A stretch of DNA of 42,370 nt from a virus: positions 1 through 42,370 of IMG/VR virus record IMGVR_UViG_3300045242_000124, one strand, 5' to 3'. This document shows positions 13,345 to 42,370 of the stretch, one piece after another (the stretch's first letter is position 1; every line of letters begins with the position of its first letter). The position numbers and the translations under genes were made by a program. Below the pieces are notes generated by a model. The model searched no databases. It saw nothing but the letters and a program-made list of their open reading frames with translations, and was not told the origin of the DNA.

Positions 13345-13356
13345 TGGTTAACTCTC

Positions 13357-13749: not shown

Positions 13750-13865
13750 GGGTGGACCGATTAACGCCGGTGCTTACGCTTCCGACGATTATAGACTAGA
13801 CCCTGGCTAAGCATCGTTCGACTCCTAGGTTGTGCGCGGGACACTTATTGCACCGCTTCCATGCC

Positions 13866-16095: not shown

Positions 16096-16313
16096 GCCGG
16101 GGTCTGTGTGGGACCAGGTGCTACCAAGGCCGCCGCCATCTTTGCCGAGAAACGATGCCCATCCACCAATGCAAGACCATCACCGCACCAGTCATCGGGC
16201 GCCACGACCGGCCATTGACCATTAGCTGCCTCGTTCTTGCCAAAAAGAGTTGGTGCCGACTGGTGGCAAGTATTTTTCACAAAGAAAACACAGGCAAGGC
16301 AACTATCGGCCAT
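16092..16313 (-). CDS. Small Cys-rich protein (73 aa), paralog of 18727..18912 and 19711..19932
   Basis: CLACVFFVKNTCHQ...GQWPVVAPDDWCGDG. ATGA-type overlaps with both neighbours. Confidence 0.55.
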   Translation of the reverse strand: MADSCLACVFFVKNTCHQSAPTLFGKNEAANGQWPVVAPDDWCGDGLALVDGHRFSAKMAAALVAPGPTQTPA

Positions 16314-16654
16314 CAGATCCGCTCCGGATAGTCAAATGGGCGAGCCCACATCTCCTGCCAAGACGATTCCACCTTCTGCAGTGAATAGGTTGAGCCTGGA
16401 CCTCCGGTCCCCTTAATACGCCAGCCTAACCCTTCAAGCTTCTTGTTCGCCGCCTTTGCCATGACCGAGACAATATTGTGATCCTCGGGGCCGCCATTGG
16501 GGTCATCGGCATAGACTGCGTCGATGATCTGCCAGACAGTCACCCCTTGCGGATTCCTAGCAATATAATCAACCATTGCCTGCCGACGCAGCCCGCCAAC
16601 ATGGAACTTCGGAGGGAATCCGCGCCCACAATGCGGGCAAACATCATCGCTCAT
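16313..16654 (-). CDS. Winged-helix DNA-binding protein with N-terminal CxxC (113 aa); small-terminase or regulator candidate
   Basis: VWQIIDAVYADDPNGGPEDHNIVSVMAKAANKKLEGLGWRIKGTGGPGSTYSL resembles OmpR/PhoB-type winged helix. Overlaps the terminase stop by 11 nt. Confidence 0.5.
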   Translation of the reverse strand: MSDDVCPHCGRGFPPKFHVGGLRRQAMVDYIARNPQGVTVWQIIDAVYADDPNGGPEDHNIVSVMAKAANKKLEGLGWRIKGTGGPGSTYSLQKVESSWQEMWARPFDYPERI

Positions 16655-23348: not shown

Positions 23349-23756
23349 TTAGGCCTCCTGTTCCTTCTGGTGCAGGAGGCCTTTCTCTCTCAGCTCCCTG
23401 CACAGATCAAAGATAAAGCGCTTTGTCTGGGGATCACGTTTGGCTTGGGCGAGGATCGACGCGATTCCATCCCACACCGTAGAGTGGTCGCGGCCGCCGA
23501 GTATGCGGCCGACCTGGGGAAGGCTGAACCGAGTCATGCGGTAGATTAGTAGGTAGCAAAGCCGTCTGGCAAGCATGATCTGCCGCTCATGTGAGCGGCC
23601 ATAGATGTCCTCAGGGTAGACCCCCGTCCGAAAAGCCACATATCGCACAATAAAGTCTTGCCTGTGCGCTCCTGTAGAGAACTTCGGGCCTGGCGCTGGC
23701 GAAAGACGCCTATGCGCTGCGGCGTACTGAGCCGCTAGATCAGTCTCGATGCTCAA
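23349..23756 (-). CDS. DnaA domain-IV-like (Bac_DnaA_C) DNA-binding protein (135 aa), candidate replication initiator or origin-binding factor
   Basis: FSLPQVGRILGGRDHSTVWDGIASILAQAKRD matches the conserved S.p.IG..fGgRDHsTV.ha..ki signature of DnaA domain IV. Confidence 0.7.
   Translation of the reverse strand: MSIETDLAAQYAAAHRRLSPAPGPKFSTGAHRQDFIVRYVAFRTGVYPEDIYGRSHERQIMLARRLCYLLIYRMTRFSLPQVGRILGGRDHSTVWDGIASILAQAKRDPQTKRFIFDLCRELREKGLLHQKEQEA
23351..23391 (+). terminator. Candidate rho-independent terminator for rightward transcription: AGGCCTCCTG-N12-CAGGAGGCCT then TTCTCTCTC
   Basis: Perfect 10-bp stem (23351-23360 / 23373-23382) followed by a pyrimidine/T-rich run. It lies inside the last codons of the convergent gene 23349..23756. 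Confidence 0.45.
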
Positions 23757-29418: not shown

Positions 29419-29862
29419 ATGGCCAATGAGACTGTGGAATTGACGATACAATTCGTCAATCCTCCCAAAGAGGGGTCAAAGTGGGGGAGCATCAAATCCT
29501 CAGAAGGAATCTTCTACGGCGGCCCGCCCGCCTTGCTAAGGCAGTTCACTGCAGGTGAAGTTTGCACGATCGAATTCAGCAAGTCTGCCAATGGTCTTTA
29601 CAATAACATCGTCAAAAAGATCGGCGCCAGCAAGCCGGCGCCATTGTCTCCCCCACCGCGGCAACGGACGCACCCTAACGATCAAACCAGCATCTTTGTC
29701 ACTGCCTTGCTCGGCCACTTCATCCACACCGGCAAGGTCGCGCTTCAAGAAGATATGATTGCCGAAGCCGCAGACATGATCCTGCGCGCCTACCGGAAAT
29801 GCTCGCTCGGCGGTCTGCAGGTGCAGACCCGTGACGACATGGACGATTCCATAGGATTCTGA
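29419..29862 (+). CDS. Hypothetical protein (147 aa), first gene of the sugar operon
   Basis: ATG at 29419 lies 5 nt after GGGAGG (the track starts at the TTG at 29416). Its stop overlaps the next ATG. No motif recognised. Confidence 0.6.
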   Translation: MANETVELTIQFVNPPKEGSKWGSIKSSEGIFYGGPPALLRQFTAGEVCTIEFSKSANGLYNNIVKKIGASKPAPLSPPPRQRTHPNDQTSIFVTALLGHFIHTGKVALQEDMIAEAADMILRAYRKCSLGGLQVQTRDDMDDSIGF

Positions 29863-30728
29863 TGAGCACTTTTATCGTGGCCGAAGTCGGCGTTAATCAC
29901 AACGGCAGCTTGGACATCGCCAAGAGGCTAATCGATGCGGCAAAATGGGCCGGCGCCGACGCCGTGAAGCTGCAAAAACGCACCGTGGAGGTTGTCTATG
30001 CAAACCAGTTGGAAACGCCCCGAGAGTCTCCTTTCGGAACTACGCTTGGGGAGCAGAAAAGAGCATTGGAATTCAGCAGGCTTCAGTGGGATCTACTTGC
30101 CTCCTACTGTATTGCGATCAAAATGCCCCTATTTGCTAGCGCGTGGGATATTGCAAGCCTTGAATTCCTCGCTAAGTACGCTTTCCCCTACAACAAAATT
30201 GCGTCTGCTATGGCAACAAATCATGATTTTGTGGTCGCTATCGCTGCTGAACGTAAGCCTACGTTTGTCTCAACGGGTATGTGCGAATTTAGAGATATCC
30301 ACAATGCTATCACTTGGCTCCGAGGAGCAGGAGTAGGCGGGGCGCCACGAACCACCGCAGACGGAATAACCTTGATGCACTGCATCGGCACCTACCCGGC
30401 CGATGATGAAGAACTTAATCTCTGCCTGATACCCAAGATGCAGCGAGCCTTTGGCTTGCCCGTGGGCTACAGCGGCCACGAGGCTGGGGTGACGCCCTCG
30501 GTTGTCGCCGTGGTCTTGGGGGCCTGCGCCATCGAGCGGCACATCACCTTGGATCGCAGCATGTATGGCTCGGATCAGGCCGCTAGTCTCGAGCCGGTGG
30601 GCTTTAAACGAATGGTAGAGATGATTCGCAAGCTTCCGGTGATTGTCGGCAAGGCCACGACGCGGGAGATTTCCGATAGGGAGCGCGCGGTCGCCAAAAA
30701 ACTACGATATTGGGAGAATTCAGAATGA
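29862..30728 (+). CDS. NeuB-family nonulosonic acid synthase (sialic/pseudaminic/legionaminic acid synthase-like), 288 aa, apparently without the C-terminal SAF domain
   Basis: The N-terminus FIVAEVGVNHNGSLDIAKRLIDAAKWAGADAVKLQKRT is the hallmark NeuB/PseI/LegI motif. It ends about 50-60 aa short of typical family members. Confidence 0.85.
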   Translation: MSTFIVAEVGVNHNGSLDIAKRLIDAAKWAGADAVKLQKRTVEVVYANQLETPRESPFGTTLGEQKRALEFSRLQWDLLASYCIAIKMPLFASAWDIASLEFLAKYAFPYNKIASAMATNHDFVVAIAAERKPTFVSTGMCEFRDIHNAITWLRGAGVGGAPRTTADGITLMHCIGTYPADDEELNLCLIPKMQRAFGLPVGYSGHEAGVTPSVVAVVLGACAIERHITLDRSMYGSDQAASLEPVGFKRMVEMIRKLPVIVGKATTREISDRERAVAKKLRYWENSE

Positions 30729-30931
30729 CCGACATTGTGGAGCGGCTGCGGTATCAGTCCAAGGATTTTGGATACTTGCGCCTGGAAGCCGCCGCCGAGA
30801 TCGAGCAGCTACGTGCCGAGAATGCCGGCATCCAACAGGTGGCAACGCGCTTTGAGGGAGAAGCCGAAAGATTGCGCACTGAGATCGAGCAGCTGCGGAC
30901 TGAGATAGCGCGGATGCAGACCGGCACATGA
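30725..30931 (+). CDS. Small coiled-coil protein (68 aa) inside the sugar operon
   Basis: The ATG at 30725 forms ATGA with the NeuB-like stop. Heptad-like repeat AEIEQLRAENAGIQ...EAERLRTEIEQLRTEIARMQ. Confidence 0.55.
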   Translation: MTDIVERLRYQSKDFGYLRLEAAAEIEQLRAENAGIQQVATRFEGEAERLRTEIEQLRTEIARMQTGT

Positions 30932-31593
30932 TTCATTGCTTGATTAGTGCTCGAGCACATTCTGAGAGATTGCCTGGCAAGCATTTTCTCGACATCGGCA
31001 GCGGCATGATGGTGATGCAGCACGTCGAGCGGAGATGCAGGCACTTCGGAATGCAGCCCGTGTTCTGTGTCCCCGCACCGGAAATAAGTGAGTTTGACCA
31101 ATGGCTTGGTTGCACTGTCTACGGCGGAGACCCCGACAACCTGGAGGCGCGATTGATCGAGTGTGCAATCGGGTTGGAGTTGAAGCAGTTTCATCATCTT
31201 GATGGTGACGATCCGTTCTTTGATGAAACTGGAATTGTCTCCAGCATGCGCGCCCTGCAGCAATCCAATGCCGCGCGAATTACGCCAAGTTACGAGTCAC
31301 AGTCCGGATCAGGACGAATGGGGACGAGCTATAACCTGATGCAGAATGCGCAGGGCGAGGGGATTCTGGTCGAGGAGGGCAGGACCGCTCCATGGCCCCA
31401 GCGACTGACCCTGGACTATATCGAGGACTATCATTTATTGCTCGTGGTCAATCGCATCGTTGGCGGCTACATGGCGCCCAGGTGGGCGGTGGATGATGCC
31501 TTTGTCCGCAATCCCGACCTGCACAAGATCAACTGGTTCCGCACCGCAGAATGGAAAGATCGCCAGCTCGGCGCAGTCAAGAAGGTGATGTGA
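30928..31593 (+). CDS. Cytidylyltransferase-family protein (CMP-nonulosonate synthetase / SpsF-like), 221 aa
   Basis: The N-terminus IHCLISARAHSERLPGKHFLDIGSGMMVMQHV fits the i.AR..S.RlPGK...l.g.p.i motif of the acylneuraminate cytidylyltransferase family. Confidence 0.6.
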   Translation: MIHCLISARAHSERLPGKHFLDIGSGMMVMQHVERRCRHFGMQPVFCVPAPEISEFDQWLGCTVYGGDPDNLEARLIECAIGLELKQFHHLDGDDPFFDETGIVSSMRALQQSNAARITPSYESQSGSGRMGTSYNLMQNAQGEGILVEEGRTAPWPQRLTLDYIEDYHLLLVVNRIVGGYMAPRWAVDDAFVRNPDLHKINWFRTAEWKDRQLGAVKKVM

Positions 31594-32643
31594 ATGAGTG
31601 ACCCCGTTGCCGAGTTTGAGCGTCGCTTTGCCGAGAAGATCGGCACCGAGTACGCCATAGCGGTCAATAGCGGCACCAGCGCCCTGCATGCTGCCCTCGA
31701 GGCTGTTGATGTACGCGGCGGCGAGGTGATCATGCCTGCCCTGTGCCCGGCGATGGTGGCGTTTGCCATCATTCACGCCGGAGCTCAGCCGATATTTGCC
31801 GACGTGCATCCAGAGACATTCCTAGTCACCCCGACCACTATTTCCCCGCTGATAGGCAACAATACCCGAGCGATTATCCCGGTGTCTCTGTATGGCCTGC
31901 CAGCCGATACCGATGCACTAAAGGATCTTGCACTTCCAATCATCGAAGACTGCGCCCAATGCCTATTCGGGCGTTACAAGGATACCTTCGCCGGTCCGAA
32001 GGCAGACATGGCTTGCTATTCCTTTGAAGCAAAAAAGCACATGACCACCGGCTCGGAAGGAGGGATGATCATCACCAATAACGCTGCACTGGCGGAACGC
32101 GCCCGCAAGTTCAGCGGCCTCGGGTATGCACACTTGAGCGCGGGTATGGGAGGCACGAGAACATCCCTCAATATACCCGAGGCACAATCCCCCGATTATC
32201 TACGCTTTGATACGATCGGCCTCAATTACCGCATGAGTTTTGCGCAGGCCGAGAAGGGCATCTATGCCCTCAAATATGTTCAGGAGCGTATCCAGCTGCG
32301 ACAAGAGATCGGCTATTTGTGGCAGCATGTCCTGGGTAGCGAGCTGCAAAAGCACTCCTACGATGCCGATCACACATTCTGGACCGCCGCTTGGCCTGGA
32401 CCGATCCCGGAATGGCGGGACTTTTATGATGGGTTTGTTAAACGCGGAGGCGACGGGTTCTATGCCGCACCGCAACTGCCGTGGAATGAACCAGCACTCT
32501 CGGACTTCAAGCCCCTAAATGCAACCCCAGTCGCCGAGAGACTGCAGCGCAGCCTGATGCTGTTCAAGACTAATTATCGCTCGCTCTACTACGCCATGCA
32601 GCAAACCAAGATCCTACAGGAGATGCTGCATGTTCCGGCTTAA
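31594..32643 (+). CDS. DegT/DnrJ/EryC1/StrS-family PLP-dependent sugar aminotransferase (349 aa)
   Basis: EFERRFAEKIGTEYAIAVNSGTSALHAALEAV plus the lysine region YSFEAKKHMTTGSEGGMIITNN match family signatures. Confidence 0.85.
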   Translation: MSDPVAEFERRFAEKIGTEYAIAVNSGTSALHAALEAVDVRGGEVIMPALCPAMVAFAIIHAGAQPIFADVHPETFLVTPTTISPLIGNNTRAIIPVSLYGLPADTDALKDLALPIIEDCAQCLFGRYKDTFAGPKADMACYSFEAKKHMTTGSEGGMIITNNAALAERARKFSGLGYAHLSAGMGGTRTSLNIPEAQSPDYLRFDTIGLNYRMSFAQAEKGIYALKYVQERIQLRQEIGYLWQHVLGSELQKHSYDADHTFWTAAWPGPIPEWRDFYDGFVKRGGDGFYAAPQLPWNEPALSDFKPLNATPVAERLQRSLMLFKTNYRSLYYAMQQTKILQEMLHVPA

Positions 32644-33277
32644 GGGCAAGCGGGTGGCGGTAATAGGCTGTGATGGACTATTGGGCAAGGTGGCTGTCGA
32701 GACGGTAGAGGAATTGGGAGGTAAGGTGACCGAATATGATTTGAGGATCGGGGACGACATCAGGGAGTCATCGTTTGTCGTTGCTGCGATGCACGACAAT
32801 GTAGATGCGGTTATAAACTGCGCCATTGGCAACCAGGCGCCGGTCAAGGACGCAGACCTGTGGTTCAAGAGAGATCTTGATATAGGCCTCACCGGCGCGC
32901 TGAATGTCGCCATGGGATTTGAGCAAGCGCTGAGGCGAAACAAGGGGAGTCTCGTCTTTGTTGGTTCCGACCTGTCGTTTATAGCCCCATATCCTGAGCG
33001 CTACGCTCCCAATTACAAGCCTTTGGCCTACTCCGTAGTAAAGCACGGAATCATAGGCATGACCCGCTATCTAGCGGCCCACTGGGGGCCGGATGTGCGG
33101 GTGAATTGCCTATGCCCTGGCGGGATAGACCAGGGGCAGGCCGTGCCTAGGTGCCCCCTGGGCCGCCTGGCAAAGCCGGAGGAGATGAAGGGTCCGATAG
33201 CGTTCCTATTGTCGGAGGCCTCGAGCTACATGACTGGGACAACCCTGGTCGTCGATGGAGGAAGAACAATATGGTGA
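32630..33277 (+). CDS. Short-chain dehydrogenase/reductase (215 aa)
   Basis: GKRVAVIGCDGLLGK (glycine-rich NAD(P) loop), VINCAIG, YSVVKHG (YxxxK) and NCLCPGGI. Confidence 0.8.
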   Translation: MFRLKGKRVAVIGCDGLLGKVAVETVEELGGKVTEYDLRIGDDIRESSFVVAAMHDNVDAVINCAIGNQAPVKDADLWFKRDLDIGLTGALNVAMGFEQALRRNKGSLVFVGSDLSFIAPYPERYAPNYKPLAYSVVKHGIIGMTRYLAAHWGPDVRVNCLCPGGIDQGQAVPRCPLGRLAKPEEMKGPIAFLLSEASSYMTGTTLVVDGGRTIW

Positions 33278-33822
33278 GCACGCATTACGTCTGGACTGAC
33301 GCTGCAATCGAGGAATTCAAGTCGATGTGGCTCGGAGGTGTGCACATTTACGACATGGCTCGTCATTTCAATATGGTCGAGCAGAGCATTCGTAAGGCGC
33401 GGTTAAGGTTTGGGCTGCCGGAACGAAAGATCAGCAACTGGACCGATGAAAGGTCGGACTACCTCAAGGAGAGCTGGGGACATTCAACCGCCTCAGCCAT
33501 CGCGGCAAAGCTGAATATCTCCCGCAATGCCGTGATTGGCCGAGCTCGGCGCATGGACCTCGATGCCAAGAGAAGTGGACCAGTGACCGGCAACAAGCAG
33601 CGGCCACGACAAATGCCCGTCATTATTAGGCCGCCGGCGCCCCCGCCGCGGGAACCGTTCTCATGGCCGGAGATTCCGTCACTGAATATTCCGTTACTCG
33701 AGCTTGAAGATGGACAGTGCCGCTTTCCTTGCGATGAGGGGTTCTGCGGGCATCCCATTGTCTATAACTCTTATTGCGCGCAGCATACGCGATTGTGCTA
33801 CCGGATCCTGCGAGTTGCCTAG
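33271..33822 (+). CDS. gcrA: GcrA-family cell-cycle regulator homolog (183 aa) with a duplicated N-terminal HTH-like module
   Basis: NWTDERSDYLKESWGHSTASAIAAKLNISRNAVIGRARRMDL and the C-terminal LLELEDGQCRFPCDEGFCGHPIVYNSYCAQHTRLCY match GcrA N- and C-terminal signatures. An upstream VWTDAAIEEFKSMWLGGVHIYDMARHFNMVEQSIRKARLRFGL is a second copy of the N-module. The ATG at 33271 follows GGAGGAAG. Confidence 0.8.
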   Translation: MVSTHYVWTDAAIEEFKSMWLGGVHIYDMARHFNMVEQSIRKARLRFGLPERKISNWTDERSDYLKESWGHSTASAIAAKLNISRNAVIGRARRMDLDAKRSGPVTGNKQRPRQMPVIIRPPAPPPREPFSWPEIPSLNIPLLELEDGQCRFPCDEGFCGHPIVYNSYCAQHTRLCYRILRVA

Positions 33823-34097
33823 CCCTTTCTGATTTCGTCCAGGCGCTTATTAACCATCTCGGCAACGATCTTCAATTCACCTGTGGTCGGGCGGGTCTCC
33901 TCGAGCCGGTCAATGCGATCCTCTATGCGCTTGATATCGCGGCTGATGGCAGTCTGATCGGCCTCGTGCTCGCGGATGCTCAGGGATTTATCCATTGATC
34001 GGGTGACAAAATGGACAACCGAAATGAGAAAAGCTGCGATGGCGATGAATACCGACCAATCGCCGTTCAGCACCGAGTTGCGAATATCGCCGTTCAT
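33819..34097 (-). CDS. N-terminal TM plus coiled-coil protein (92 aa), i-spanin-like lysis candidate
   Basis: WSVFIAIAAFLISVVHFV, then a charged heptad region. Last gene of the lysis block. Converges on gcrA with a 4-bp overlap. Confidence 0.45.
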   Translation of the reverse strand: MNGDIRNSVLNGDWSVFIAIAAFLISVVHFVTRSMDKSLSIREHEADQTAISRDIKRIEDRIDRLEETRPTTGELKIVAEMVNKRLDEIRKG

Positions 34098-34127
34098 CCG
34101 CCCTCACAGATGAAAAGCCCTGACGGG

Positions 34128-34463
34128 CTAAAGCCCGAGATTGCCGAGCACCCCAGGCTGTGACATTGCCTGTTGCAGTGCAGCAGTCGCCATTGCCATA
34201 TCCTGTTGGTAATTTGCCGGGCTCGAGATGGCGGCAGTGAGCCAGGTTGTAACCGCCGGAGGCAAGTTCGGGATGCCCTCGATCGCCGGCAATAAAGCCG
34301 GGGCCATGGCCGGATTTGCCTCCATGGTCATAATCATCTGCATAGCACGGCTGGCATCGCTTTGCGTCATGTGCCGCATGAAATTGCCGAATTGGCCGGG
34401 GGTTAGACCGGCAAGAATATTGGCAAGTGTCGTGCCGACTGAAGTTGCTGCTGGGCCTGCCAT
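34128..34463 (-). CDS. Hypothetical protein (111 aa), Ala/Met/Pro-rich
   Basis: Start moved to the ATG at 34463, 7 nt after GAGGAG. The track ORF extends to 34565. Confidence 0.5.
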   Translation of the reverse strand: MAGPAATSVGTTLANILAGLTPGQFGNFMRHMTQSDASRAMQMIMTMEANPAMAPALLPAIEGIPNLPPAVTTWLTAAISSPANYQQDMAMATAALQQAMSQPGVLGNLGL

Positions 34464-34473
34464 GATAGTCTCC

Positions 34474-34758
34474 TCAATGGTCGGGGTGGTCGTGGTGCCA
34501 CTGACCTGGATAGGGGTTATAGTACGGGACGGGATAGGGATTGTAAGCTGGAGCGGGGACCACACAGGTTACCCCATTCCAGTAGGTCATCACCGGGCAA
34601 CTAGGCTGTACCGGTGCAGGGGGTGGTTGTGCGACCTGGGAACAAGTGCAATTCGGCGATCCAGGAGCGCAGGCGACAGCGCCAGAGAAGCATTGCCACG
34701 TCTGCGCATACGCCGAGCTGGCGAGTAGGGAAAGGGTGATGGCGAGGAGAATTCTCAT
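34474..34758 (-). CDS. Secreted Cys/Pro-rich protein (94 aa), possible o-spanin-like component (no lipobox)
   Basis: Signal peptide MRILLAITLSLLASSAYA|QT. The mature part is Pro/Cys/Tyr-rich. Confidence 0.5.
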   Translation of the reverse strand: MRILLAITLSLLASSAYAQTWQCFSGAVACAPGSPNCTCSQVAQPPPAPVQPSCPVMTYWNGVTCVVPAPAYNPYPVPYYNPYPGQWHHDHPDH

Positions 34759-35045
34759 GATGGGGGCGACTTTGCGTCTTCCCGCACACTCGATTGTGCC
34801 TGTGTGGTTGCCATAGTGGTGATCGCGGTGTCCTTCTCCTTCGACCCCTGCGAAGAGCCGAAATAGAACCCGACGATATTGGTGAATCCCACGCTCATGA
34901 GAGCTCCAACCAGGACCTTGAACACGTCGGTATCCGTCTTGCCGGTCACGACAAGCGCAAATACTAGGCCCACGATCGACAGCACGAGGACATTAGCAAT
35001 GAAGGCCGCCGTGTCGGGCAGGAACTTGAGCTCGGGGAAGTTCAT
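34755..35045 (-). CDS. Holin candidate (96 aa, two TM segments, charged C-terminus)
   Basis: AAFIANVLVLSIVGLVFALVV and VLVGALMSVGFTNIVGFYF, then a hydrophilic tail. One gene away from the endolysin. Confidence 0.55.
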   Translation of the reverse strand: MNFPELKFLPDTAAFIANVLVLSIVGLVFALVVTGKTDTDVFKVLVGALMSVGFTNIVGFYFGSSQGSKEKDTAITTMATTQAQSSVREDAKSPPS

Positions 35046-35296
35046 TTTGATTTTTTGTAGAGCCGCTTCTTCGGCACCTCCACACTTATATGGGGAGGAT
35101 GTGGCGTCTTTACAACTGGAACTAGAGACACCCTGTCAGCATCAACAGCATCCACAACAGCCCTGGCCATGACCGCTGCAAATACGCCTTCCTCGGCGCC
35201 AGGCATCTGGCTCTTGAACTTGCCGACCCCATCCTGCAGCACCTTGAGCGCTGCGGCAGTGCCCACAACGTAGTCTTTCTGGCTTGCCATGGTCAT
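35042..35296 (-). CDS. Hypothetical protein (84 aa)
   Basis: Start moved to the ATG at 35296, which forms ATGA with the endolysin stop. The track ORF extends to 35392. Confidence 0.5.
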   Translation of the reverse strand: MTMASQKDYVVGTAAALKVLQDGVGKFKSQMPGAEEGVFAAVMARAVVDAVDADRVSLVPVVKTPHPPHISVEVPKKRLYKKSK

Positions 35297-35862
35297 GTTT
35301 CCCGTATCGGTTGAATGGTGCTGTCCATACTCATTAGCGTTTTGAGGATTGGCGCGCAACCAGGCTGCGGGTCCATCACCCGGCCATTCCATTTCCCGTC
35401 ACTCACATATTTACCCGGCTTTTGGATATTCGTACCCCCCCAGATGTATGGGGATGGTAGACCTTTACCTGCGTATCCCCAGCCATTGAAGGACTCGGCC
35501 CAGAACAGCATTTTCTCCAGCCGCCAGTCCTTGACATCAGTCAGGCCGTCGAGCTTGAGCGCATCCACCGCCCCCGCCTCCCAGGACGGGAAGGGGCCGC
35601 GGCCCTTGGGCACGATCGTCGTCACGTGATGCAGGGATTGGCCGTTACCGAGGTAGGTGTCGAAATTACCGTCACTCTCCCGAGTGTGCAGCATGGCGAT
35701 GAGGGGCCAGGCAACGCCGGTCAGCTTCTCAACTTCCTCGTACCGGTCCTTATGGGCCAGGATCTTCTGCGCTATTGCCCTGAACTCGGCCTGCCTCTGG
35801 GGCTTTATCACCATTGAGTCCCATTCCTGGGCATACTGGGGCCATTTGGCTGAATATCTCAT
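35293..35862 (-). CDS. Endolysin candidate, lysozyme-family protein (189 aa)
   Basis: WPLIAMLHTRESDGNFDTYLGNGQSL...VPKGRGPFPSWEAGAVDAL resembles the RES-motif lysozyme-family proteins common in alphaproteobacterial phages (recalled, not searched). Adjacent to the holin-like gene. Confidence 0.6.
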   Translation of the reverse strand: MRYSAKWPQYAQEWDSMVIKPQRQAEFRAIAQKILAHKDRYEEVEKLTGVAWPLIAMLHTRESDGNFDTYLGNGQSLHHVTTIVPKGRGPFPSWEAGAVDALKLDGLTDVKDWRLEKMLFWAESFNGWGYAGKGLPSPYIWGGTNIQKPGKYVSDGKWNGRVMDPQPGCAPILKTLMSMDSTIQPIRET

Positions 35863-36089
35863 CGCGCTGCCCTTGCTTTTAGCACCTCTATCTCTGCTTG
35901 CTGTGCTTTATTCCCTGTGAAGTCGTCCAGCTCATCGATGCACAAACTCAATTCGGCCCCGGCACAGGTGATGATCACGGCGTTCTTATGTTCCACATAC
36001 GGTCCAGTTGGTGCCGTTGTAGCGTATCTTCGCATGCCGCGAGCCACCGCCGCTGGACGTTGCACCGAACGTTCCCGCGCTGTTGTCAT
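35859..36089 (-). CDS. Doubtful small ORF (start uncertain)
   Basis: The track ORF overlaps the last 104 nt of the 643-aa gene. A GTG at 35996 would give a 45-aa product (VEHKNAVIITCAGAELSLCIDELDDFTGNKAQQAEIEVLKARAAR). Confidence 0.3.
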   Translation of the reverse strand: MTTARERSVQRPAAVARGMRRYATTAPTGPYVEHKNAVIITCAGAELSLCIDELDDFTGNKAQQAEIEVLKARAAR

Positions 36090-37917
36090 CCACGATATTG
36101 TATTCTTGCCCTTCGGTCGGCCCTACAGCTTGGACTCCCGACTGCCCTGGGAGGCTGGCAAATGTCATTCCTAGCGTTGGATTGTTACAATTCACAAAAG
36201 CAAAACTGGCTTTATTGTTACTGTTCATCCCCGATAGTGGGGTTTGATTGTCAACCCCCCAGGCAGAGCCATGCGTGACCGTCAACGCCACTCCTGTGAT
36301 GTTCAAACTGATAGCCCCACCGGCCCTCGTTGTTAGAACATAGGACTTATTAGGTCCACCGTTGCTATAACTTCCGACAGGAAAGCCAACCTCGTTCGCG
36401 ATAAGCGGCGCGCTAGACCCGGTGGGTACGCCAGACCCTGAGACCACACCAAGAATGCCAATGGTATTGGTCAACCCAGCCTTGACGGTCAAAACATTTC
36501 CGGCAACACCCGAAGGACTTCCCGCGCCAGCACCATTATCTATGAAGGCGTTGGTATCGGTAACAGCCGCGGGGGTCGTATTTCCAAAGCAACTGTTAAA
36601 TACAACATTTTGAAACACATCACTGGTGCCAAATTGAAACGCCGCCTGTGCGCAACTGATATTACCTCGGACTCCGTTGAATACCGTTTGCCCTACGCTT
36701 AACAACAACATCGCGCATTGCGGAGAGCCAGTATTGATGCCGCCCAAAGTAGGGGCTTGATTCATGACGCTTGTCAGGTTGCACGGACCGATGACGCATC
36801 CTGACATGCCGTGCAGAGCCATTGCTATTCCAACTGCTTCACACTCGTAATTAGAAATCGTGGATGCGGTCAGGGTTTGCTTACGCCTAAACGTTATGGC
36901 CTGCGCGCTGCTAAGAGCAGGGACGTTGCCCCCCGTACTCGTGACATTGTAGGTCCCCGTACCACCCGTTCCCGTACCCAGGCTCGCTACGGTCACAGTG
37001 ATAGTACTGGCTATGCCGGTTGCAACAATTTGGTCGCCGACCTGAATGGGGACAATGCTGCTCAGCGGATTTGGGTAAGTCGTACCGCCGACGGTCAGCA
37101 CGCCAGAAGTGCCGCTGCTGGTCATGGTGCATGACGTGGCTACTCCGATGAAATAGCCCAGTCTCATCCCAACAATGGCATTCTCAATATGGATATCCGA
37201 GATGTTGCAGGCAGTCCCGGTTGCCGCGAGCCCGGTTTCCATGAGCCCGGGAGAATGACACCCCATGACCGTGCTGCCGCTGATGACGAGGCCCACAGAA
37301 CCTTGGGCGCCGCCACTCTGTACCTCTATGCCGGTGATGGTGGAAACAAATTCATTCCATCCTGACCAAAGACCAATATTACCCAGCAATGATAGATTGC
37401 GCAGCACGCCAAACGGCTGGACGTAGACTAACGCACCGCTGCCGATAGTAGTGCTAAGGTTGACAATGCTCAGGTCCGAAATTTCCTGCACACCATTACT
37501 TTGATCATCCAGTCGGACAACAAAATCGTTCGCGATGGTCCCTTGAATGATGCTGGCATTGCAGCCGGCCCCTGTGAAGCGCCCCGTAGACGCTCCCACG
37601 CCCGCCAGATTGATCTGGCTTAAGACCTTGTAGGTGCCAGGAGGAAAGAAAACAGTGCCGCCCTTCGTGCTCGTGCCGTACATCGCAGCAACGGCCGCGT
37701 TGATAGCCGGAGCACTGTCCGAAGCGCCTGTACGATCGGCACCATAGTCTAGAACATTGAAAATATCCGCCCAGCGATCGGGATCAGTACGGTTCGCGCT
37801 CCTACCAGTGGCAGGAAAGGCAAATCCTGTAAATGCTGTGTCAGCCCGAGCCTGCGTTGCGAATACGCCCGCAACAACCCCGCCGAGCAGCAATGCTTTC
37901 CTGCGCGAGCTATTCAT
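35986..37917 (-). CDS. Right-handed beta-helix (pectate-lyase-3-like) polysaccharide depolymerase or tailspike-like protein with a twin-arginine signal peptide (643 aa)
   Basis: MNSSRRKALLLGGVVAGVFATQARA|D fits the Tat motif S-R-R-x-(F/A)-L plus AxA. FNVLDYGADRTGASDSAPAINAAVAAMYGTSTKGGTVFFPPGTYKV matches the N-terminal signature of Pectate_lyase_3 / tailspike beta-helices. Confidence 0.65.
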   Translation of the reverse strand: MNSSRRKALLLGGVVAGVFATQARADTAFTGFAFPATGRSANRTDPDRWADIFNVLDYGADRTGASDSAPAINAAVAAMYGTSTKGGTVFFPPGTYKVLSQINLAGVGASTGRFTGAGCNASIIQGTIANDFVVRLDDQSNGVQEISDLSIVNLSTTIGSGALVYVQPFGVLRNLSLLGNIGLWSGWNEFVSTITGIEVQSGGAQGSVGLVISGSTVMGCHSPGLMETGLAATGTACNISDIHIENAIVGMRLGYFIGVATSCTMTSSGTSGVLTVGGTTYPNPLSSIVPIQVGDQIVATGIASTITVTVASLGTGTGGTGTYNVTSTGGNVPALSSAQAITFRRKQTLTASTISNYECEAVGIAMALHGMSGCVIGPCNLTSVMNQAPTLGGINTGSPQCAMLLLSVGQTVFNGVRGNISCAQAAFQFGTSDVFQNVVFNSCFGNTTPAAVTDTNAFIDNGAGAGSPSGVAGNVLTVKAGLTNTIGILGVVSGSGVPTGSSAPLIANEVGFPVGSYSNGGPNKSYVLTTRAGGAISLNITGVALTVTHGSAWGVDNQTPLSGMNSNNKASFAFVNCNNPTLGMTFASLPGQSGVQAVGPTEGQEYNIVDDNSAGTFGATSSGGGSRHAKIRYNGTNWTVCGT

Positions 37918-38120
37918 CGGGTGAGTAGCTTCCCGTTAACATCGTCACGGAGGAACGCCGATGAACCGTCCAGTAAAAAGCCTCCTGCTGGCAGCGTGCT
38001 GTTCGCTAATTGCGGACCAATAAGTCCAGCATGTGCGGTGCTATTAACTACTTGCAATACCACGAATGCCTGTGCTCCGACAAGGAGCCACAGCACAATT
38101 ACTACCGTGATCCTTAACAT
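37914..38120 (-). CDS. Small protein with N-terminal signal or anchor (68 aa)
   Basis: MLRITVVIVLWLLVGAQA|F. Its stop forms ATGA with the beta-helix gene start. Confidence 0.5.
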   Translation of the reverse strand: MLRITVVIVLWLLVGAQAFVVLQVVNSTAHAGLIGPQLANSTLPAGGFLLDGSSAFLRDDVNGKLLTR

Positions 38121-38129
38121 GTTATCCTC

Positions 38130-38327
38130 TTAGGGACCTGCTTGTGCTGGAATCAATGGTGCTATTTGTGTTGGTGTAACCAATTTGCCCAGCTCTGTGG
38201 TATTCAATCCTTGCGTGCCACCGGACACTAAGTTGGATGCCGTGGCCGCAAAACTTCCACTAGCATCTACATGCCGATGAGCAAAGCAAGAAGCTTCAGC
38301 ATGACGCCGGGAAGTTTCCCGCTCCAT
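38130..38327 (-). CDS. Doubtful small ORF (65 aa)
   Basis: Track ORF overlapping the upstream gene by 32 nt. Composition is not distinctive. Confidence 0.3.
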   Translation of the reverse strand: MERETSRRHAEASCFAHRHVDASGSFAATASNLVSGGTQGLNTTELGKLVTPTQIAPLIPAQAGP

Positions 38328-39279
38328 AGTAGGCTTGCTGATTTTTACAGATGTTTGTTCGCTGCGTGAGAGTCAGCGCCGATTCGATCATGCCTCCCTC
38401 AGAAAAATACCCATCCGAAACCTGTCCACTACCGCCAAATTGAAAAATAACAATCTTCTGGGCAGTCGGAGTGTTTGTTCCACACGCTATTCCAGTAATA
38501 TCTACACCGTTTTCGTTGAGCTGACAGGTATTCGAGGCCGATGCCACTCCCTGCACGGCCTTCATCGTACCAGCCGCTGCTGGCGATGGCGGCTCACAAA
38601 CAATGCTGCCAGCATACATCATATTGCTCGTATTTAAGCTGGAACACGTAACATAAAGAACGCCTGCATTGGCATCCATTCCTATGCCCGTTTGGAACGT
38701 TCCACTTCCAGTCACTATCTCGGCAACAATAGTGAACGAGTAGGGAAAACCAAAAGTCAGGCCGGAAGATGAAGAATAAAATTGATTGGCACTTGCCAGG
38801 CATTGACCGAATGTCGCTGTCGCGAAACAGGAACCAGCGGGAGCTACCGTGAATTGATTGGCCGCCGTGGATTGCAGTTGATGATTCCCGTTCCCCGTCT
38901 GGTCGTACATCTCGACGACGGAACAGGTAGTGGCAGCGCACCACGTCGCAACTGCTGTTCCATTATCACCGCTCGGCGTACAGTTTGCCGTAATCCCCCA
39001 AGTGCCGCTGGTGGCGATCAGCACGTCGCAGGTGTGGCTGTCGCTCGCACGACTTAGATTGCAACTCGCATTGCTGCCAGTTGCAAAAGCGGCATTGTAG
39101 GCGCGGACGCAAGAATACCAAGCATTCCAGCCAGAAGCTTTGTCGCCAACGCCCTGATAACCAGTTGGTGCGACAGGAGCGCCTAGACCGGCGCCAGTCT
39201 GCGACACTTGAGCGTAGCATGGCCAAGCCACGATCAGTGCGGCGCAGAGAAAAAGATAGAGGCCAAGCACACGTTTCAT
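38296..39279 (-). CDS. Secreted Cys-rich protein (327 aa)
   Basis: Start moved to the ATG at 39279 (ATGA with the upstream stop). Signal peptide MKRVLGLYLFLCAALIVAWPCYA|Q. Many Cys in the mature part. Confidence 0.6.
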   Translation of the reverse strand: MKRVLGLYLFLCAALIVAWPCYAQVSQTGAGLGAPVAPTGYQGVGDKASGWNAWYSCVRAYNAAFATGSNASCNLSRASDSHTCDVLIATSGTWGITANCTPSGDNGTAVATWCAATTCSVVEMYDQTGNGNHQLQSTAANQFTVAPAGSCFATATFGQCLASANQFYSSSSGLTFGFPYSFTIVAEIVTGSGTFQTGIGMDANAGVLYVTCSSLNTSNMMYAGSIVCEPPSPAAAGTMKAVQGVASASNTCQLNENGVDITGIACGTNTPTAQKIVIFQFGGSGQVSDGYFSEGGMIESALTLTQRTNICKNQQAYYGAGNFPASC

Positions 39280-40202
39280 TGCTGTACGTAAGTAAGATTG
39301 CCAGCAACGAAAACACTGCTGCCGAGGATGATGCACAACTCGCTAGATGCCGCCCCTTTCGCGATTGTACCAACGCCACTGCCGAGCGTAAGGCCACCGT
39401 TGGCGGCTAGTGCCATGCTGTTCGCGATACTCGCCGTCGTCGATCCGATGACCGCCGCGTTGCCGGTCACGCAGGCGGTGCCGGTGCCGGTGGTGAATGC
39501 GACTGTCGTTGCGCCAGCGGCGATCAGCGAGAGTGAACAAACATAGATCGAAGTAGAGCCAGAGAGGGCAATAAGCTGGACCGAACTCGTCGAGTTCGTG
39601 TTGATCGGCAGATTGGTCTTGGCCTGGAATGTGCAGGGATCGGCAACAGCCTGATTGCTCGCTAATGTCACCGGCGAGCTGTTGGCCATCGTCGCTTGAC
39701 CATTGGTGTTGGCATTGGTGACAAAGGCATTGACACCAGGAACAAGCACGGCGCCGGGAGACGTGCCATAATTGGCTATTGCGCCAAGAGTGCTACCAGC
39801 CCATGAGGTAAAGCCGTTGACCTGCGTCGCCAGGGTCCCCGTGCCGACCACGGTGGCGTTGAGGCTCGCCGCAGTAGCCTGCGACACAGTGGACAAAACC
39901 GGCGTCATAGATGCGACGCCCTGGACAGTTACAACGCCGCCGGTAGCCGTTCCCGCCGTACCCTCGCCCGTAATGGTCAGCCCATGGCCGCTATCGACTG
40001 TTGCGCAGGTTGTTACTGTCGTGAAATCGCAGACCGTATTCATCCACGATAGATTGCCAGTAACGGCGCCGGTAGAAGAAAAAACGTTGAACGTGCGGGC
40101 CACCGCCCCGGCATCATTCGCCTGGACTGTGGTCGCCCCACTCGCTGCCCACGCCTGCAACGGCGCCAAGGCAATTACAAGTGCCAGTAATATGCGAATC
40201 AT
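39276..40202 (-). CDS. Secreted Thr/Ala/Gly-rich protein (308 aa) whose C-terminal ~100 aa are paralogous to 41008..41358
   Basis: Start moved to the ATG at 40202. Signal peptide MIRILLALVIALAPLQAWA|AS. The C-terminus reads IYVCSLSLIAAGATTVAF...ALAANGGLTLG...ILGSSVFVAGNLTYVQQ. Confidence 0.6.
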   Translation of the reverse strand: MIRILLALVIALAPLQAWAASGATTVQANDAGAVARTFNVFSSTGAVTGNLSWMNTVCDFTTVTTCATVDSGHGLTITGEGTAGTATGGVVTVQGVASMTPVLSTVSQATAASLNATVVGTGTLATQVNGFTSWAGSTLGAIANYGTSPGAVLVPGVNAFVTNANTNGQATMANSSPVTLASNQAVADPCTFQAKTNLPINTNSTSSVQLIALSGSTSIYVCSLSLIAAGATTVAFTTGTGTACVTGNAAVIGSTTASIANSMALAANGGLTLGSGVGTIAKGAASSELCIILGSSVFVAGNLTYVQQ

Positions 40203-40203
40203 C

Positions 40204-40419
40204 TTAGTGTCCTGCCCATATGAGTGTACACGGTCCACTCCAGTCCAAAGTACCCTGCGCCGGTGGTCCAGAAACCACGGTACAGGCATTGACAAAGGGA
40301 GTGGTTACTTGGTTGTCAATATTGGAGCCTGTATGTGGTCCGCCACCTGTGCCGGGATTATTGATGGCAGCATGTGCAGCAAGGCCGCTCATTATCATCA
40401 ATAACACCCAGCGCCACAT
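40204..40419 (-). CDS. Small secreted protein (71 aa)
   Basis: Signal peptide MWRWVLLMIMSGLAAHA|A. Ends 1 nt before the next start. Confidence 0.5.
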   Translation of the reverse strand: MWRWVLLMIMSGLAAHAAINNPGTGGGPHTGSNIDNQVTTPFVNACTVVSGPPAQGTLDWSGPCTLIWAGH

Positions 40420-41007: not shown

Positions 41008-41358
41008 TCACCCGTAGAACGGAACTTGTGTGTAGTAGAGATTGCCCGAGACAGTAATACTCGAGCCGCTTGAGACCAGCGTGAAGGCGTTGCCCATTGA
41101 GGTGGTAAACCAGGGCGTGCCGTCCATGTCCAGGGTCATCGACCCATTCGCAACCAATGGGATACCCCCTGAGAGGGCAACCGAGGCCGACCCATCACAA
41201 AATGTGAGAGTAGTGGTGCCGGAAGCCACCAAAAACAGCCGGTAAACCCGAATGATCTTATTCGTGACCGATGAAATCACGTTTGCGGTTGCCGTAGCGC
41301 TGACAATGGCAATCGTCAGGAGATTACTATCGTTCGGAGCGATATTAACGCCGGCCAT
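41008..41358 (-). CDS. Beta-rich small protein (116 aa), paralog of the C-terminal domain of 39276..40202
   Basis: IRVYRLFLVASGTTTLTF...PLVANGSMTLD...TLVSSGSSITVSGNLYYTQ aligns by eye with the other protein. Confidence 0.6.
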   Translation of the reverse strand: MAGVNIAPNDSNLLTIAIVSATATANVISSVTNKIIRVYRLFLVASGTTTLTFCDGSASVALSGGIPLVANGSMTLDMDGTPWFTTSMGNAFTLVSSGSSITVSGNLYYTQVPFYG

Positions 41359-41972: not shown

Positions 41973-42370
41973 TACCGCTCCTGCCCCAATCTTTCCAATA
42001 GCGGACTCAACTCTGCCCCCGCCAAAGGCGCCCCGCGCTGCAGAGCATTCCCCACAGTTTCGCGCGCCGGCCGAGTTGCCTCCCGTATGGCTGTCCCCTT
42101 CTCCGTATAGGGAAGGCCTACTGTCCCACGAAGGCCCAATCCGTAGAGGGTTTTCAAAAAGCCAAGCTTTTCTCGTTCGGCAGTGCCAGAGTCGGAGACC
42201 ACCGCGGGCAAGACTTTCTGCGCCGTTTCAGCCACTCCCTGCCCCAAGTTGCGACCCATACCAAACCCAAGCGGGGATTTGTCCCTCTTCTTCATTGTCT
42301 GCAGCAGATCATTGGCCGTGAATACCTGCCCCGACGTAGCGCGCCGCTCGGCAGCATCAAATGCCGTGCG
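41972..42370 (-). CDS. 3' part of the 508-aa wrap-around ORF (same gene as 1..1255; 42244-42370 duplicates 1-127)
   Basis: The frame is continuous because 42243 is divisible by 3, and 1255 nt plus 272 nt gives 509 codons. It ends ...SPLLERLGQER with the stop at 41972-41974. The track shows only the internal-Met fragment 41972..42295. Confidence 0.8.
   Translation of the reverse strand, partial: RTAFDAAERRATSGQVFTANDLLQTMKKRDKSPLGFGMGRNLGQGVAETAQKVLPAVVSDSGTAEREKLGFLKTLYGLGLRGTVGLPYTEKGTAIREATRPARETVGNALQRGAPLAGAELSPLLERLGQER
42244..42370. repeat. Terminal direct repeat, copy 2 of 2 (identical to 1-127)
   Basis: See copy 1. The offset is exactly 42,243. Confidence 0.97.

Follow-up and report, generated by a model that had tools for sequence, protein, structure and literature searches.

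The analyzed window, a stretch of 42,370 nucleotides, holds the complete, circular genome (about 42.2 kb) of a phage, probably a podovirus infecting an alphaproteobacterium. A cassette of five neighboring minus-strand genes encoding proteins of 71, 308, 327, 68, and 643 amino acids (g71, g308, g327, g68, and g643) lies between its virion genes and a set of probable lysis genes. The cassette genes run in the same direction as the virion and lysis-like genes, two gene pairs are translationally coupled, and no promoter or terminator that would set the cassette apart from its neighbors was found. The ATGA overlaps reported earlier at 39276-39279 (g308/g327) and 37914-37917 (g68/g643) are borne out by the ORF coordinates and, for the latter, by direct reading of the sequence; the ORFs, quoted N-termini, and AxA sites also agree in coordinates and translations with their original placement. 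The ATG starts in the cassette are backed by plausible ribosome-binding sites or ATGA coupling, and the mechanically called ORF of g308 starts at a TTG upstream of the ATG at 40202. The gap between g327 and g68 contains a 65-aa ORF (38130-38327) of uncertain coding status that carries no signal.

Directly downstream of the cassette, the probable lysis region (33819-35862, minus strand) comprises g189 (35293-35862; no assignment), g96 (34755-35045; small and holin-like, its two hydrophobic stretches recognized by eye in the translation; phrog_9990), and g92 (33819-34097; a transmembrane segment and a coiled coil, with a weak holin/anti-holin match), a homolog of which adjoins the lysis genes of another phage, L011. 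The lysis assignment is tentative because family searches of this region identified no endolysin. Among these genes, just downstream of the cassette, lies g94 (34474-34758, minus strand), a Cys/Pro-rich protein with 6 cysteines and the signal MRILLAITLSLLASSAYA ahead of QT, for which no family match was found. The original prediction had counted five or six exported proteins between 35986 and 40419; five do lie there, and g94 is a sixth located outside that interval. Its placement of the cassette inside the late region is only partly secure, as only architecture marks the downstream genes as lysis-like and other phages carry the cassette at different module boundaries. Elsewhere in the genome, p247 (4661-5404, minus strand; N-terminus MTYPTTFANLAAGNQPLSQVDTMF), encoded after the p562 tail protein, is a signal-less candidate for a virion tail fiber by resemblance only, matching a 191-aa fiber-like protein of the related phage MW202753.1 in position and type of N-terminal motif.

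A crude automatic scan covered 71 coding-strand ORFs and placed signal-like N-termini at real ATG starts in the cassette block only. The signals of g308 and g94 escaped it and were read from the translations; its few remaining matches fell on alternative starts internal to ORFs or on a transmembrane segment of holin-like character. Hundreds of divergent homologs keep tripartite n/h/c signals with AxA sites, whereas their adjoining mature sequence is variable. By comparison, only 4-5 of about 77 generic phage PF12708 proteins from IMG/VR (some 5%) have a signal-like N-terminus, none of them of the RR type. The mature cassette proteins contain 2.88% cysteine versus 0.58% in 22 other late proteins, an approximately fivefold enrichment (Fisher p = 1.3e-11), and the cysteine counts of the mature proteins are all even (2, 6, 14, 0, 12, and 6).

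The largest product, g643 (35986-37917, minus strand), is a right-handed beta-helix protein behind a Tat-type signal (MNSSRRKALLLGGVVAGVFATQARA ahead of DTAF, encoded at about 37843-37917). It matches PF12708, formerly Pectate_lyase_3, above the gathering score (E = 5.6e-12), and its best Foldseek matches are the phage tailspikes GVE2 ORF18, Sf6, Det7, and HK620 as well as AlgE4, so that the earlier call of a pectate-lyase-3 or tailspike beta-helix has held up. In the AF2 model (pLDDT 81), residues 1-45 are disordered and the helix starts at about residue 46, some 20 residues past the predicted cleavage site and with no recognizable virion-binding N-domain ahead of it; the C-terminal domain ends RYNGTNWTVCGT. 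In g643 no catalytic residues could be picked out, and E245 is the sole invariant acidic residue in the family alignment.

Nine signal-bearing homologs of g643 (26-46% identity) all keep RR-x-(L/A/S)-(L/F)-(L/I) and the AxA site in the alignment, followed by an identical mature N-terminus, DT(A/D)F..F.FP.TG. The RR pair is present in 9/9 signal-bearing family members and a basic c-region residue in 5/9, including g643 itself (R at -2). Mean h-region hydrophobicity is 1.98 in this family versus 2.47 and 2.54 in the Sec-type families, and the h-region of g643 itself (KD 2.43) is as hydrophobic as that of a Sec signal. Neither the Tat HMM TIGR01409, with a cutoff as loose as E<=10, nor the Pfam Tat model picked up the N-terminus of g643. 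One homolog, P0018, carries a Sec-type signal ahead of the same mature start. Three others (P0002, P0007, and P0009) are signal-less, with P0007 and P0009 starting exactly at the conserved mature N-terminus, and such signal-less homologs adjoin portal genes in SU10-like podophages. P0002 and P0007 are 32-47% identical to g643 over nearly its full length, and all three, which come from SU10-like podophages, have the conserved N-terminal segment and a C-terminal RYNGTNWTV motif in common with it. The virion tailspikes of P22, Sf6, and HK620 share the beta-helix fold of the g643 model, tailspikes being its top Foldseek matches. Unlike g643 with its predicted cleavable RR signal, neither these tailspikes nor P0002, P0007, and P0009 have a signal peptide, and P22/Sf6-type spikes carry a particle-binding N-domain, whereas the helix of g643 lies about 20 residues from the cleavage site. 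A further homolog, P0003, has a Tat-type signal, is 41% identical to g643 over 99% of its length, and is encoded in a bacterial polysaccharide cluster next to GT4 and GT2 glycosyltransferases, Wzy_C, a carbamoyltransferase, and an epimerase.

The Sec-signal protein g308 (39276-40202, minus strand; MIRILLALVIALAPLQAWA ahead of AS) combines a variable N-terminal and middle part with a conserved C-terminal jelly-roll (about residues 190-308, ending GNLTYVQQ) that AF2 predicts confidently (pLDDT >90). It has more than 426 homologs. Its family, which carries no annotation, comprises 4648 representatives of 50%-identity clusters; four cysteines are nearly invariant in it, and 198 of 217 sampled members have canonical signals. 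Foldseek returned weak matches in the PDB (TNF-like lectins, a phage cement protein, and a needle knob) and strong matches in BFVD to free-standing phage proteins about 110 aa long, some of them named virion protein. Two genes upstream of the cassette, g116b (41008-41358, minus strand) encodes a signal-less 116-aa paralog of this jelly-roll (BLASTP E = 4e-6 against g308) that is probably a small protein of virion type. Small signal-less proteins in L018, L019, and L020 resemble g116b by eye only.

A second Sec-signal protein, g327 (38296-39279, minus strand, with its ATG at 39279; MKRVLGLYLFLCAALIVAWPCYA ahead of Q), contains 14 cysteines; its N-terminal segment is a GH54-like beta-sandwich, and the part after it shows a ConA/LamG-like pattern. 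The protein matches PF09206 at E = 2.6e-7 (30.5 bits; gathering 25), covering 104 of 315 profile positions, and the g327 family profile matches residues 10-87 of the GH54 enzyme AbfB (PDB 1WD3) at E = 6.8e-8. The beta-sandwich start of AbfB thus corresponds to roughly the first 90 mature residues of g327 and of its family members. The alignment takes in just about a third of the GH54 domain and leaves out the region of the GH54 catalytic residues, the rest of g327 showing a LamG/ConA-type lectin pattern; enzyme activity cannot be claimed for g327. About 20 of 22 g327 homologs carry signals, two of them Tat-type (RRDFLK in P0045 and SRRKFIAAA in L004).

Two small proteins complete the set. The predicted exported peptide g71 (40204-40419, minus strand; MWRWVLLMIMSGLAAHA ahead of AINN) has 2 cysteines and the C-terminal motif G.LDW S..C..IWAGH; its homologs are signal-bearing peptides of 72 aa and 58 aa in L004 (E = 5e-7), with further relatives in L008 (an 85-aa peptide) and L007 (a short match). 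The hydrophobic N-terminus of g68 (37914-38120, minus strand; MLRITVVIVLWLLVGAQA ahead of F), whose gene is preceded by an AGAGGA ribosome-binding site, may be either a signal or a signal-anchor; its homolog is a signal-bearing 68-aa peptide of L004 (E = 9e-7).

Homologs of all five proteins, the Tat beta-helix included, are encoded in an unrelated 81-kb phage contig, L004. They belong to a run that counts 13 signal-bearing proteins or more, in which the g68 homolog lies two genes upstream of the beta-helix gene with a g327-like gene (293 aa) in between. Signal-bearing runs also surround g308 or g327 homologs in L007, L011, L012, L014, L017, L021, and L019. In L019, a Phenylobacterium prophage, the run adjoins an Acyl_transf_3 O-acetylase-type gene; in L021 the module follows the lysis genes and lies beside an integrase-like gene; and another related module, at the end of a MAG contig, has as neighbors a Wzy_C-like gene and an ORF judged HNH-like by eye. 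The position of the cassette thus varies between phages: before the lysis genes, after them, or in the terminase-portal interval. MW202753.1, the closest deposited relative, has TerL, the portal, the MCP, and two tail proteins in common with our phage and an ordinary signal-less fiber set, with no signal-bearing proteins. As judged from gene content and position, the cassette is accessory in character: MW202753.1 lacks the signal-bearing proteins, p247 is kept, and the position is variable.

The conserved RR and AxA motifs, the swapping of Sec and Tat types, the cysteine enrichment, and the recurrence of the cassette all support the original prediction of genuine export signals where fibers are expected. 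With such signals on all five products, these fiber- and tailspike-like proteins are predicted, with good support, to leave the cytoplasm rather than being built into the virion there. We consider an accessory exported module that binds and degrades glycan and acts on the host envelope to be the best explanation, with a probability of roughly 55%; it would unite two possibilities raised at the outset, an exported depolymerase and envelope remodeling or superinfection exclusion.

The closest analogy is WceF (PDB 6TGF), encoded in the stewartan EPS cluster of Pantoea stewartii: a trimeric, tailspike-like beta-helix exported by Tat, whose knockout lengthens EPS chains (PMC7949094). Like WceF, g643 is predicted to combine a Tat-type signal with a right-handed beta-helix of phage-tailspike fold, and its homolog P0003 is, as wceF is, encoded in a bacterial polysaccharide cluster. 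The g643 family profile reaches 6tgf at E = 1.8e-4 in a relationship limited to about 100 residues at the helix start. This aligned start lies at about residue 239 of WceF, which has some 200 extra mature N-terminal residues compared to g643, and g643 is phage-encoded within a five-gene cassette of predicted exported proteins. On the best reading, g643 would be a phage counterpart of such Tat-exported tailspike-like EPS enzymes.

Exported proteins encoded in the late or accessory regions of phages include lambda Lom and Bor, T5 Llp, Cor, and Shiga toxin subunits, and serotype-converting genes are known from Sf6 (Oac), P22 (Gtr), and D3 (Iap/Wzy-beta). Lom, Bor, Llp, Cor, and the like are envelope proteins that depend on Sec and whose genes lie within or next to tail and lysis genes; several block or alter the phage's receptor. 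Related cassettes resemble this wider set in adjoining acyltransferase and Wzy_C-like genes. However, those examples are individual genes or small groups of enzymes whose membrane roles are known, whereas the cassette is multi-gene and syntenic, its products are predicted to be soluble, disulfide-rich, and fiber-, lectin-, or enzyme-like, and it includes one predicted Tat-exported member and one unannotated family of more than 4600 clusters.

The same genomic neighborhoods could also mean that the cassette is a moron for lysogenic conversion or host fitness, supplying adhesins, matrix proteins, or glycan-modifying proteins that benefit the host cell or lysogen rather than the lytic cycle. The modules beside an O-acetylase-type gene in the Phenylobacterium prophage, past the lysis cassette and next to an integrase-like gene, and beside Wzy_C-like and HNH-like ORFs point in this direction, as does the beta-helix homolog in a chromosomal EPS cluster. 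Our genome, however, has no integrase-sized ORF in its early region (18.5-29.4 kb) and no recognizable lysogeny module, and the cassette is translationally coupled and co-oriented with virion and lysis-like genes without promoter or terminator signals of its own. A genome-collection scan with exact peptide patterns had one close g308 relative among the matches listed, which is weak evidence against a distribution mostly in chromosomes or prophages. We thus regard this explanation as unlikely.

Fiber-like architecture, a virion-type jelly-roll, and virion-gene neighbors would fit a role in the particle equally well. The exported proteins might then serve the virion in host recognition, folding oxidatively in the periplasm (Sec) or arriving pre-folded (Tat) and docking onto particles that are otherwise complete once holin lesions and lysis bring the compartments together. 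The genes lie where fibers are expected, the C-domain of the fiber-like g308 is homologous to signal-less g116b and to a common stand-alone phage domain, the mature N-terminus at which signal-less g643 orthologs by SU10-like portal genes start could be a docking peptide, and our phage has one small signal-less fiber candidate versus the elaborate fiber set of MW202753.1. Nevertheless, we know of no virion parts of tailed phages that mature outside the cytoplasm, and a literature search found no precedent; time and concentration for docking at lysis would be unfavorable; g643 has no recognizable particle-binding domain; the position of the cassette is variable and moron-like, even past lysis genes beside an integrase; and close beta-helix relatives belong to bacterial polysaccharide clusters that involve no virion. 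This makes assembly into the virion quite improbable. That the N-termini are hydrophobic assembly anchors, as was also suggested originally, or start-codon artefacts on glycine-/alanine-rich fiber proteins would accord with the silent Tat HMM and with the hydrophobic stretch of g68, which runs beyond the proposed cleavage site and could anchor in the membrane, but is very hard to reconcile with cleavage sites conserved across divergent homologs, Sec and Tat types interchanged before the same mature protein, even-numbered and enriched cysteines, ATG starts with plausible ribosome-binding sites or coupling, and the rarity of such N-termini among generic phage PF12708 proteins.

If the cassette acts as an exported glycan-directed module, g71, g308, g327, and g68 would be exported via Sec and form disulfide bonds as they fold in the periplasm, while g643 would fold in the cytoplasm, leave it via Tat, and be cut between ARA and D. 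Sec and Tat export in a diderm end in the periplasm, and acting on a surface glycan would need periplasmic substrates or release by lysis. We infer export, expression timing, and a target outside the cytoplasm that would be the surface polysaccharide of the host itself, be it O-antigen, capsule, or EPS. On this target, g643 may act as a tailspike-type glycanase or lyase, joined by g327 as the ConA/GH54-like beta-sandwich part of the set, by g308 as a fiber-like protein with a lectin-like jelly-roll C-domain and a swappable N-domain, and by g71 and g68 as two small partner peptides. The phage would probably benefit by destroying or masking its receptor on the infected cell and on debris, by clearing the glycan layer so that progeny can escape, and by excluding superinfecting phages.

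As the original prediction had stated, the minus-strand cassette consists of five adjacent ORFs (g71, g308, g327, g68, and g643, named by the length of their products in amino acids), and inspection of the sequence and its translations confirmed their ATG starts, both ATGA overlaps, and their signal-like N-termini. A simple scan for n-, h-, and c-regions over 71 coding-strand ORFs detected such N-termini at genuine start codons in this block only; the automatic procedure missed g308 and a sixth signal-bearing protein further downstream (g94), so that their signals were taken from the translations. By this heuristic scan (with g308 and g327 read from the translations), g71, g308, g327, and g68 carry Sec-type N-termini with a positive n-region, an uncharged h-region of 8 to 15 residues, and small residues at positions -3 and -1, though that of g68 may be an uncleaved anchor. 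Canonical signals are present in 198 of 217 relatives of g308, where the adjoining mature region is hypervariable, and in around 20 of 22 relatives of g327, two of which show textbook Tat motifs (RRDFLK in the homologue P0045 and SRRKFIAAA on the 81-kb phage contig L004).

The N-terminus of g643 carries the motif S-R-R-K-A-L-L with its twin arginine at the boundary of n- and h-region, and this pair is retained in all nine signal-bearing homologues at only 26% to 46% identity. These homologues keep RR-x-(L/A/S)-(L/F)-(L/I), a short h-region, and an AxA site directly before a common mature start, DT(A/D)F..F.FP.TG..R..PDR. In P0018, a classical Sec signal precedes this same mature start, P0007 and P0009 lack any signal and begin with it at their first residue, and P0002 has a different, fiber-like N-terminus. 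Such swapping of Sec and Tat signals before an unchanged mature protein is expected if export itself is under selection. Mean h-region hydrophobicity is 1.98 in the g643 family compared with 2.47 and 2.54 in the Sec-type families, with g643 itself at a Sec-like 2.43, and 5 of the 9 signal-bearing homologues have a basic c-region residue, including the window protein with an arginine at position -2 (ARA|D). The curated Tat models TIGR01409 and PF10518 did not match g643 at E<=10 or E<=0.1, respectively, in a test that is insensitive, since P0045 with its textbook RRDFLK obtains only 9.9 bits (E=0.99). The putative Tat assignment of g643 rests on the invariant twin arginine, the basic c-region residue, and the trend of the family.

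Cysteine makes up 2.88% of the mature cassette proteins versus 0.58% of the 22 other late proteins (Fisher p=1.3e-11), the counts per cassette protein are all even (2, 6, 14, 0, 12, and 6), and four cysteines are nearly invariant across the g308 family, a pattern that is a signature of folding in an oxidizing compartment. We are highly confident in the prediction that the cassette proteins are exported. A lipoprotein reading was rejected because the signals end without a canonical lipobox, and a fimbrial or chaperone-usher reading because genes for an usher and a chaperone are both absent.

The predicted beta-helix signature of g643 was borne out by a Pfam match to PF12708, previously named Pectate_lyase_3 (46.4 bits; gathering score, 27), and by an AF2 model (pLDDT 81) with a continuous right-handed beta-helix from around residue 46, preceded by a disordered signal and linker (residues 1-45). 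Model and sequence together lack the hallmarks of P22/Sf6-type virion tailspikes, as there is no particle-binding N-domain and an RR signal is present. A search of the PDB gave 114 structure matches at E<=1e-3, the best of which were the tailspikes GVE2 ORF18, Sf6, Det7, and HK620 together with the epimerase AlgE4. E245 is the sole invariant acidic residue in an alignment of 15 family members, and tblastn of g643 against deposited phages recovered the generic N-cap motif only. For comparison, a set of around 77 generic PF12708 proteins from IMG/VR contigs, all with a start that could be identified, includes 4 to 5 with a signal-like N-terminus of any kind and none with an RR-type signal; a signal on a PF12708 protein is rare, not unique.

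A link to host polysaccharide comes from the homologue P0003, which shares 41% identity with g643 across 99% of the length, has a Tat-type signal, and is encoded in a bacterial cluster with GT4 and GT2 glycosyltransferases, Wzy_C, a carbamoyltransferase, methyltransferases, and an epimerase. Its contig (L001, homologue at 8251-10224) consists almost wholly of polysaccharide-synthesis genes and represents an uncultured analogue of the wceF/amsF arrangement. WceF of Pantoea stewartii (PDB 6tgf) is a Tat-exported trimer of tailspike fold, encoded in the stewartan cluster, that is active on exopolysaccharide (EPS) and whose knockout results in longer EPS chains (PMC7949094). The g643 family profile detects WceF weakly. 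Like wceF, the gene of P0003 lies inside a polysaccharide cluster, whereas g643 belongs to a phage genome; we therefore do not class it as a member of the WceF/AmsF type, though by analogy it may putatively work like WceF. Members of the g643 family without a signal adjoin portal genes in SU10-like podophages, so that the members of one protein family occur as spikes of virions, as EPS enzymes encoded on chromosomes, and as exported proteins of phages. On the SU10-like contig that carries P0007 (L005), the major capsid gene is apparently split (15534-17346) around a LAGLIDADG-type ORF, perhaps as the result of an intron or an intein-like insertion. Both exported accessory proteins of phages and exported tailspike-like enzymes of the WceF type are already known, and our literature search on phage-encoded Tat or Sec tail proteins returned WceF and general reviews only. 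A preprint on HFTV1 was rejected as a precedent because it concerns a host fimbrial system and not a viral protein.

Another cassette protein, g308, ends in a confidently modeled jelly-roll (AF2). In the PDB, this domain weakly resembles the Sf6 needle knob, a phage cement protein, and TNF-like lectins, and in BFVD it strongly matches a common stand-alone phage domain of around 110 amino acids that in some copies bears the name virion protein. A paralogue of this jelly-roll without a signal, g116b (116 aa, 41008-41358, minus strand), is encoded two genes upstream, and small signal-less proteins that by eye resemble it in size and look are found near the end of the virion module on three further contigs (L018, L019, and L020). 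A small number of interchangeable modules make up the N-terminal part of the g308 family. The family comprises 4,648 representatives of 50%-identity clusters (E<=1e-3), has no Pfam model, and has no member among 50,697 deposited phage records (tblastn with the C-domain of g308). The start of g327 resembles the catalytic beta-sandwich of GH54 and is followed by a LamG/ConA-like pattern; its match to PF09206 (30.5 bits against a gathering score of 25) covers profile positions 14-117 of 315 only, and its PDB profile match covers AbfB residues 10-87 only. The small peptides g71 and g68 have conserved C-terminal motifs.

Nucleotides 1-127 of the window are identical to 42244-42370, from which we infer that the window is a complete circular assembly of around 42,243 bp and that the late operon spans its ends. 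On the minus strand, this operon encodes the large terminase (16644-18515), a portal-size protein (13866-15563, 33% identical to an annotated portal), an HK97-type major capsid protein (11437-12453; phrog_9953, E=4e-28), and, as far as position 1255, additional proteins of tail and ejection-like type before it crosses the origin and runs on into 42295-33819. The cassette is located in this last part, and the small membrane proteins encoded after it resemble those of lysis genes. Since the window has no tape-measure-sized or sheath-like gene and its capsid protein has distant relatives in the Myxococcus phages Mx8 and Mx9 and in a Bradyrhizobium phage, the virus is likely a podovirus. A prophage reading of the window was rejected because the terminal repeat closes the contig and the early region has no integrase-sized ORF; between 18.5 and 29.4 kb, no ORF of integrase or polymerase size was found. 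The early region encodes a small protein with the C-terminal helix-turn-helix domain of DnaA (23349-23756, minus strand; PF08299, E=4.9e-16). On the plus strand, a GcrA cell-cycle-regulator homologue (33151-33822; PF07750, E=1e-19), whose mechanically called ORF overlaps the end of an SDR gene so that its true start is probably internal, points by sequence homology to an alphaproteobacterial host, whose cell cycle the phage may manipulate. The same strand carries a nonulosonic-acid-type sugar pathway with NeuB (29862-30728, E=1.4e-64), a cytidylyltransferase (30928-31593), a DegT/PseC-type aminotransferase (31594-32643), and the SDR (32630-33277), and a PseD/Maf-like flagellin-modification-type transferase (9263-10201) and a methyltransferase (8015-8743) adjoin the capsid genes on the minus strand of the virion module. 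These annotations suggest that a protein of the virion or the host is glycosylated with a sugar of the pseudaminic- or legionaminic-acid type.

Downstream of the cassette, no endolysin was identified by searches of Pfam, PHROGs, NCBIfam, and PDB sequences, and g189 (35293-35862, minus strand), which occupies the place expected for one, had no match in any of them and may represent an unrecognized family of lysis enzymes. Because g189 is not identifiable as an endolysin, the label of lysis cassette for this region is tentative. The signal-bearing g94 (34474-34758, minus strand) lies among holin-like genes and is rich in cysteine and proline, with 6 cysteines, a PYPVPYYNPYP repeat, and a His-rich tail; it has neither a lipobox nor a family match and is perhaps spanin-like. 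His-rich, signal-bearing small proteins are also found near the lysis genes of two other contigs (L007 and L012).

The cassette recurs as a unit. On contig L004, one run of signal-bearing proteins between the terminase and other virion genes includes the Tat beta-helix P0006 and counterparts of g71, g308, g68, and g327, the last of which has a Tat signal on this contig. This run, the most extreme version of the cassette observed, comprises at least 13 consecutive signal-like N-termini at 4028-17384, three of them Tat-type or Tat-like. Five further contigs (L007, L011, L012, L014, and L017) have signal-bearing runs around homologues of g308 or g327, usually directly before lysis genes. On L021, the run comes after the lysis genes and adjoins an integrase-like gene, in a Phenylobacterium prophage (L019) it adjoins an O-acetylase-type gene, and at the end of a MAG contig it adjoins a Wzy_C-like gene and an ORF that by eye looks HNH-like. 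A single-protein scan of GTDB genomes gave one locus among the matches listed, which is this same MAG contig. The closest deposited relative of the window phage, MW202753.1 (41% identity in TerL, 44% in the major capsid protein, and 33% in the portal), lacks the cassette proteins and has an ordinary set of signal-less fibers instead; the window keeps a signal-less fiber candidate of its own (p247). DNA searches of deposited phages with the cassette and 25 kb of the window gave no match. From its variable position, its presence or absence among relatives, and its nearness to genes of the serotype-conversion type, we conclude that the cassette is accessory cargo. Scans for promoter and terminator consensus sites, whose coverage of alphaproteobacterial promoters is poor, gave a number of sites no higher than that in shuffled sequence, and no site flanks the cassette.

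We assign a probability of around one half to a reading in which the exported proteins act on host polysaccharide. The cassette would be transcribed with the late genes, as suggested by co-orientation, coupling, and the lack of internal terminators. The Sec substrates would then fold with disulfide bonds in the periplasm, while the beta-helix would fold and probably oligomerize in the cytoplasm before crossing by Tat. Within the periplasm, as well as after rupture of the outer membrane, the proteins would bind and cut host surface polysaccharide or its periplasmic intermediates, and the small peptides may serve as partners or anchors of the large ones. The phage could benefit by removal or masking of its receptor on infected cells and debris, by loosening of the glycan layer for egress, and by exclusion of competing phages. 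The setting of some runs beside integrase-like or O-acetylase-type genes would also suit cargo for host benefit or lysogenic conversion, a reading that is weakened by the early region without an integrase-sized ORF and that we consider unlikely. Docking of the exported proteins onto virions outside the cytoplasm, for which the stand-alone copies of the jelly-roll named virion protein could speak and to which the lack of a particle-binding N-domain in g643 runs counter, seems rather improbable. It is a little more doubtful still that, in this phage and related uncultured ones, disulfide-bonded Sec substrates and pre-folded Tat substrates would join the virion as host-recognition proteins, that their docking elements would be two conserved parts, the C-terminal jelly-roll in the g308 family and DTAF..F.FP.TG in the beta-helix, and that assembly would take place in the periplasm or at lysis as a two-compartment route for the fibers of tailed phages. 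That the hydrophobic N-termini are not signals at all is very improbable, as three independent lines of evidence (comparative conservation, cysteine content, and the AF2 structure of g643) support the original view of them as genuine export signals.

Tail fibers and tailspikes are textbook cytoplasmic components of the virion, and free phage depolymerases are assumed to meet their substrate only at lysis. Here, a recurrent phage cassette is predicted to send tailspike-, lectin-, and fiber-like proteins through Sec and Tat, among them a very large unannotated exported family of more than 4,600 clusters at 50% identity (g308), and the g643 homologues, as members of a single protein family, provide concrete evolutionary links between WceF-type enzymes of EPS clusters, the tailspikes of virions, and exported proteins of phages. 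If cassette proteins reach virions, this would be a categorically new assembly route. If the receptor is destroyed or masked from inside, as in the reading that we favor, the cassette would represent a new multi-protein receptor-destroying or exclusion function for glycan receptors and also a source of naturally secretable depolymerases.
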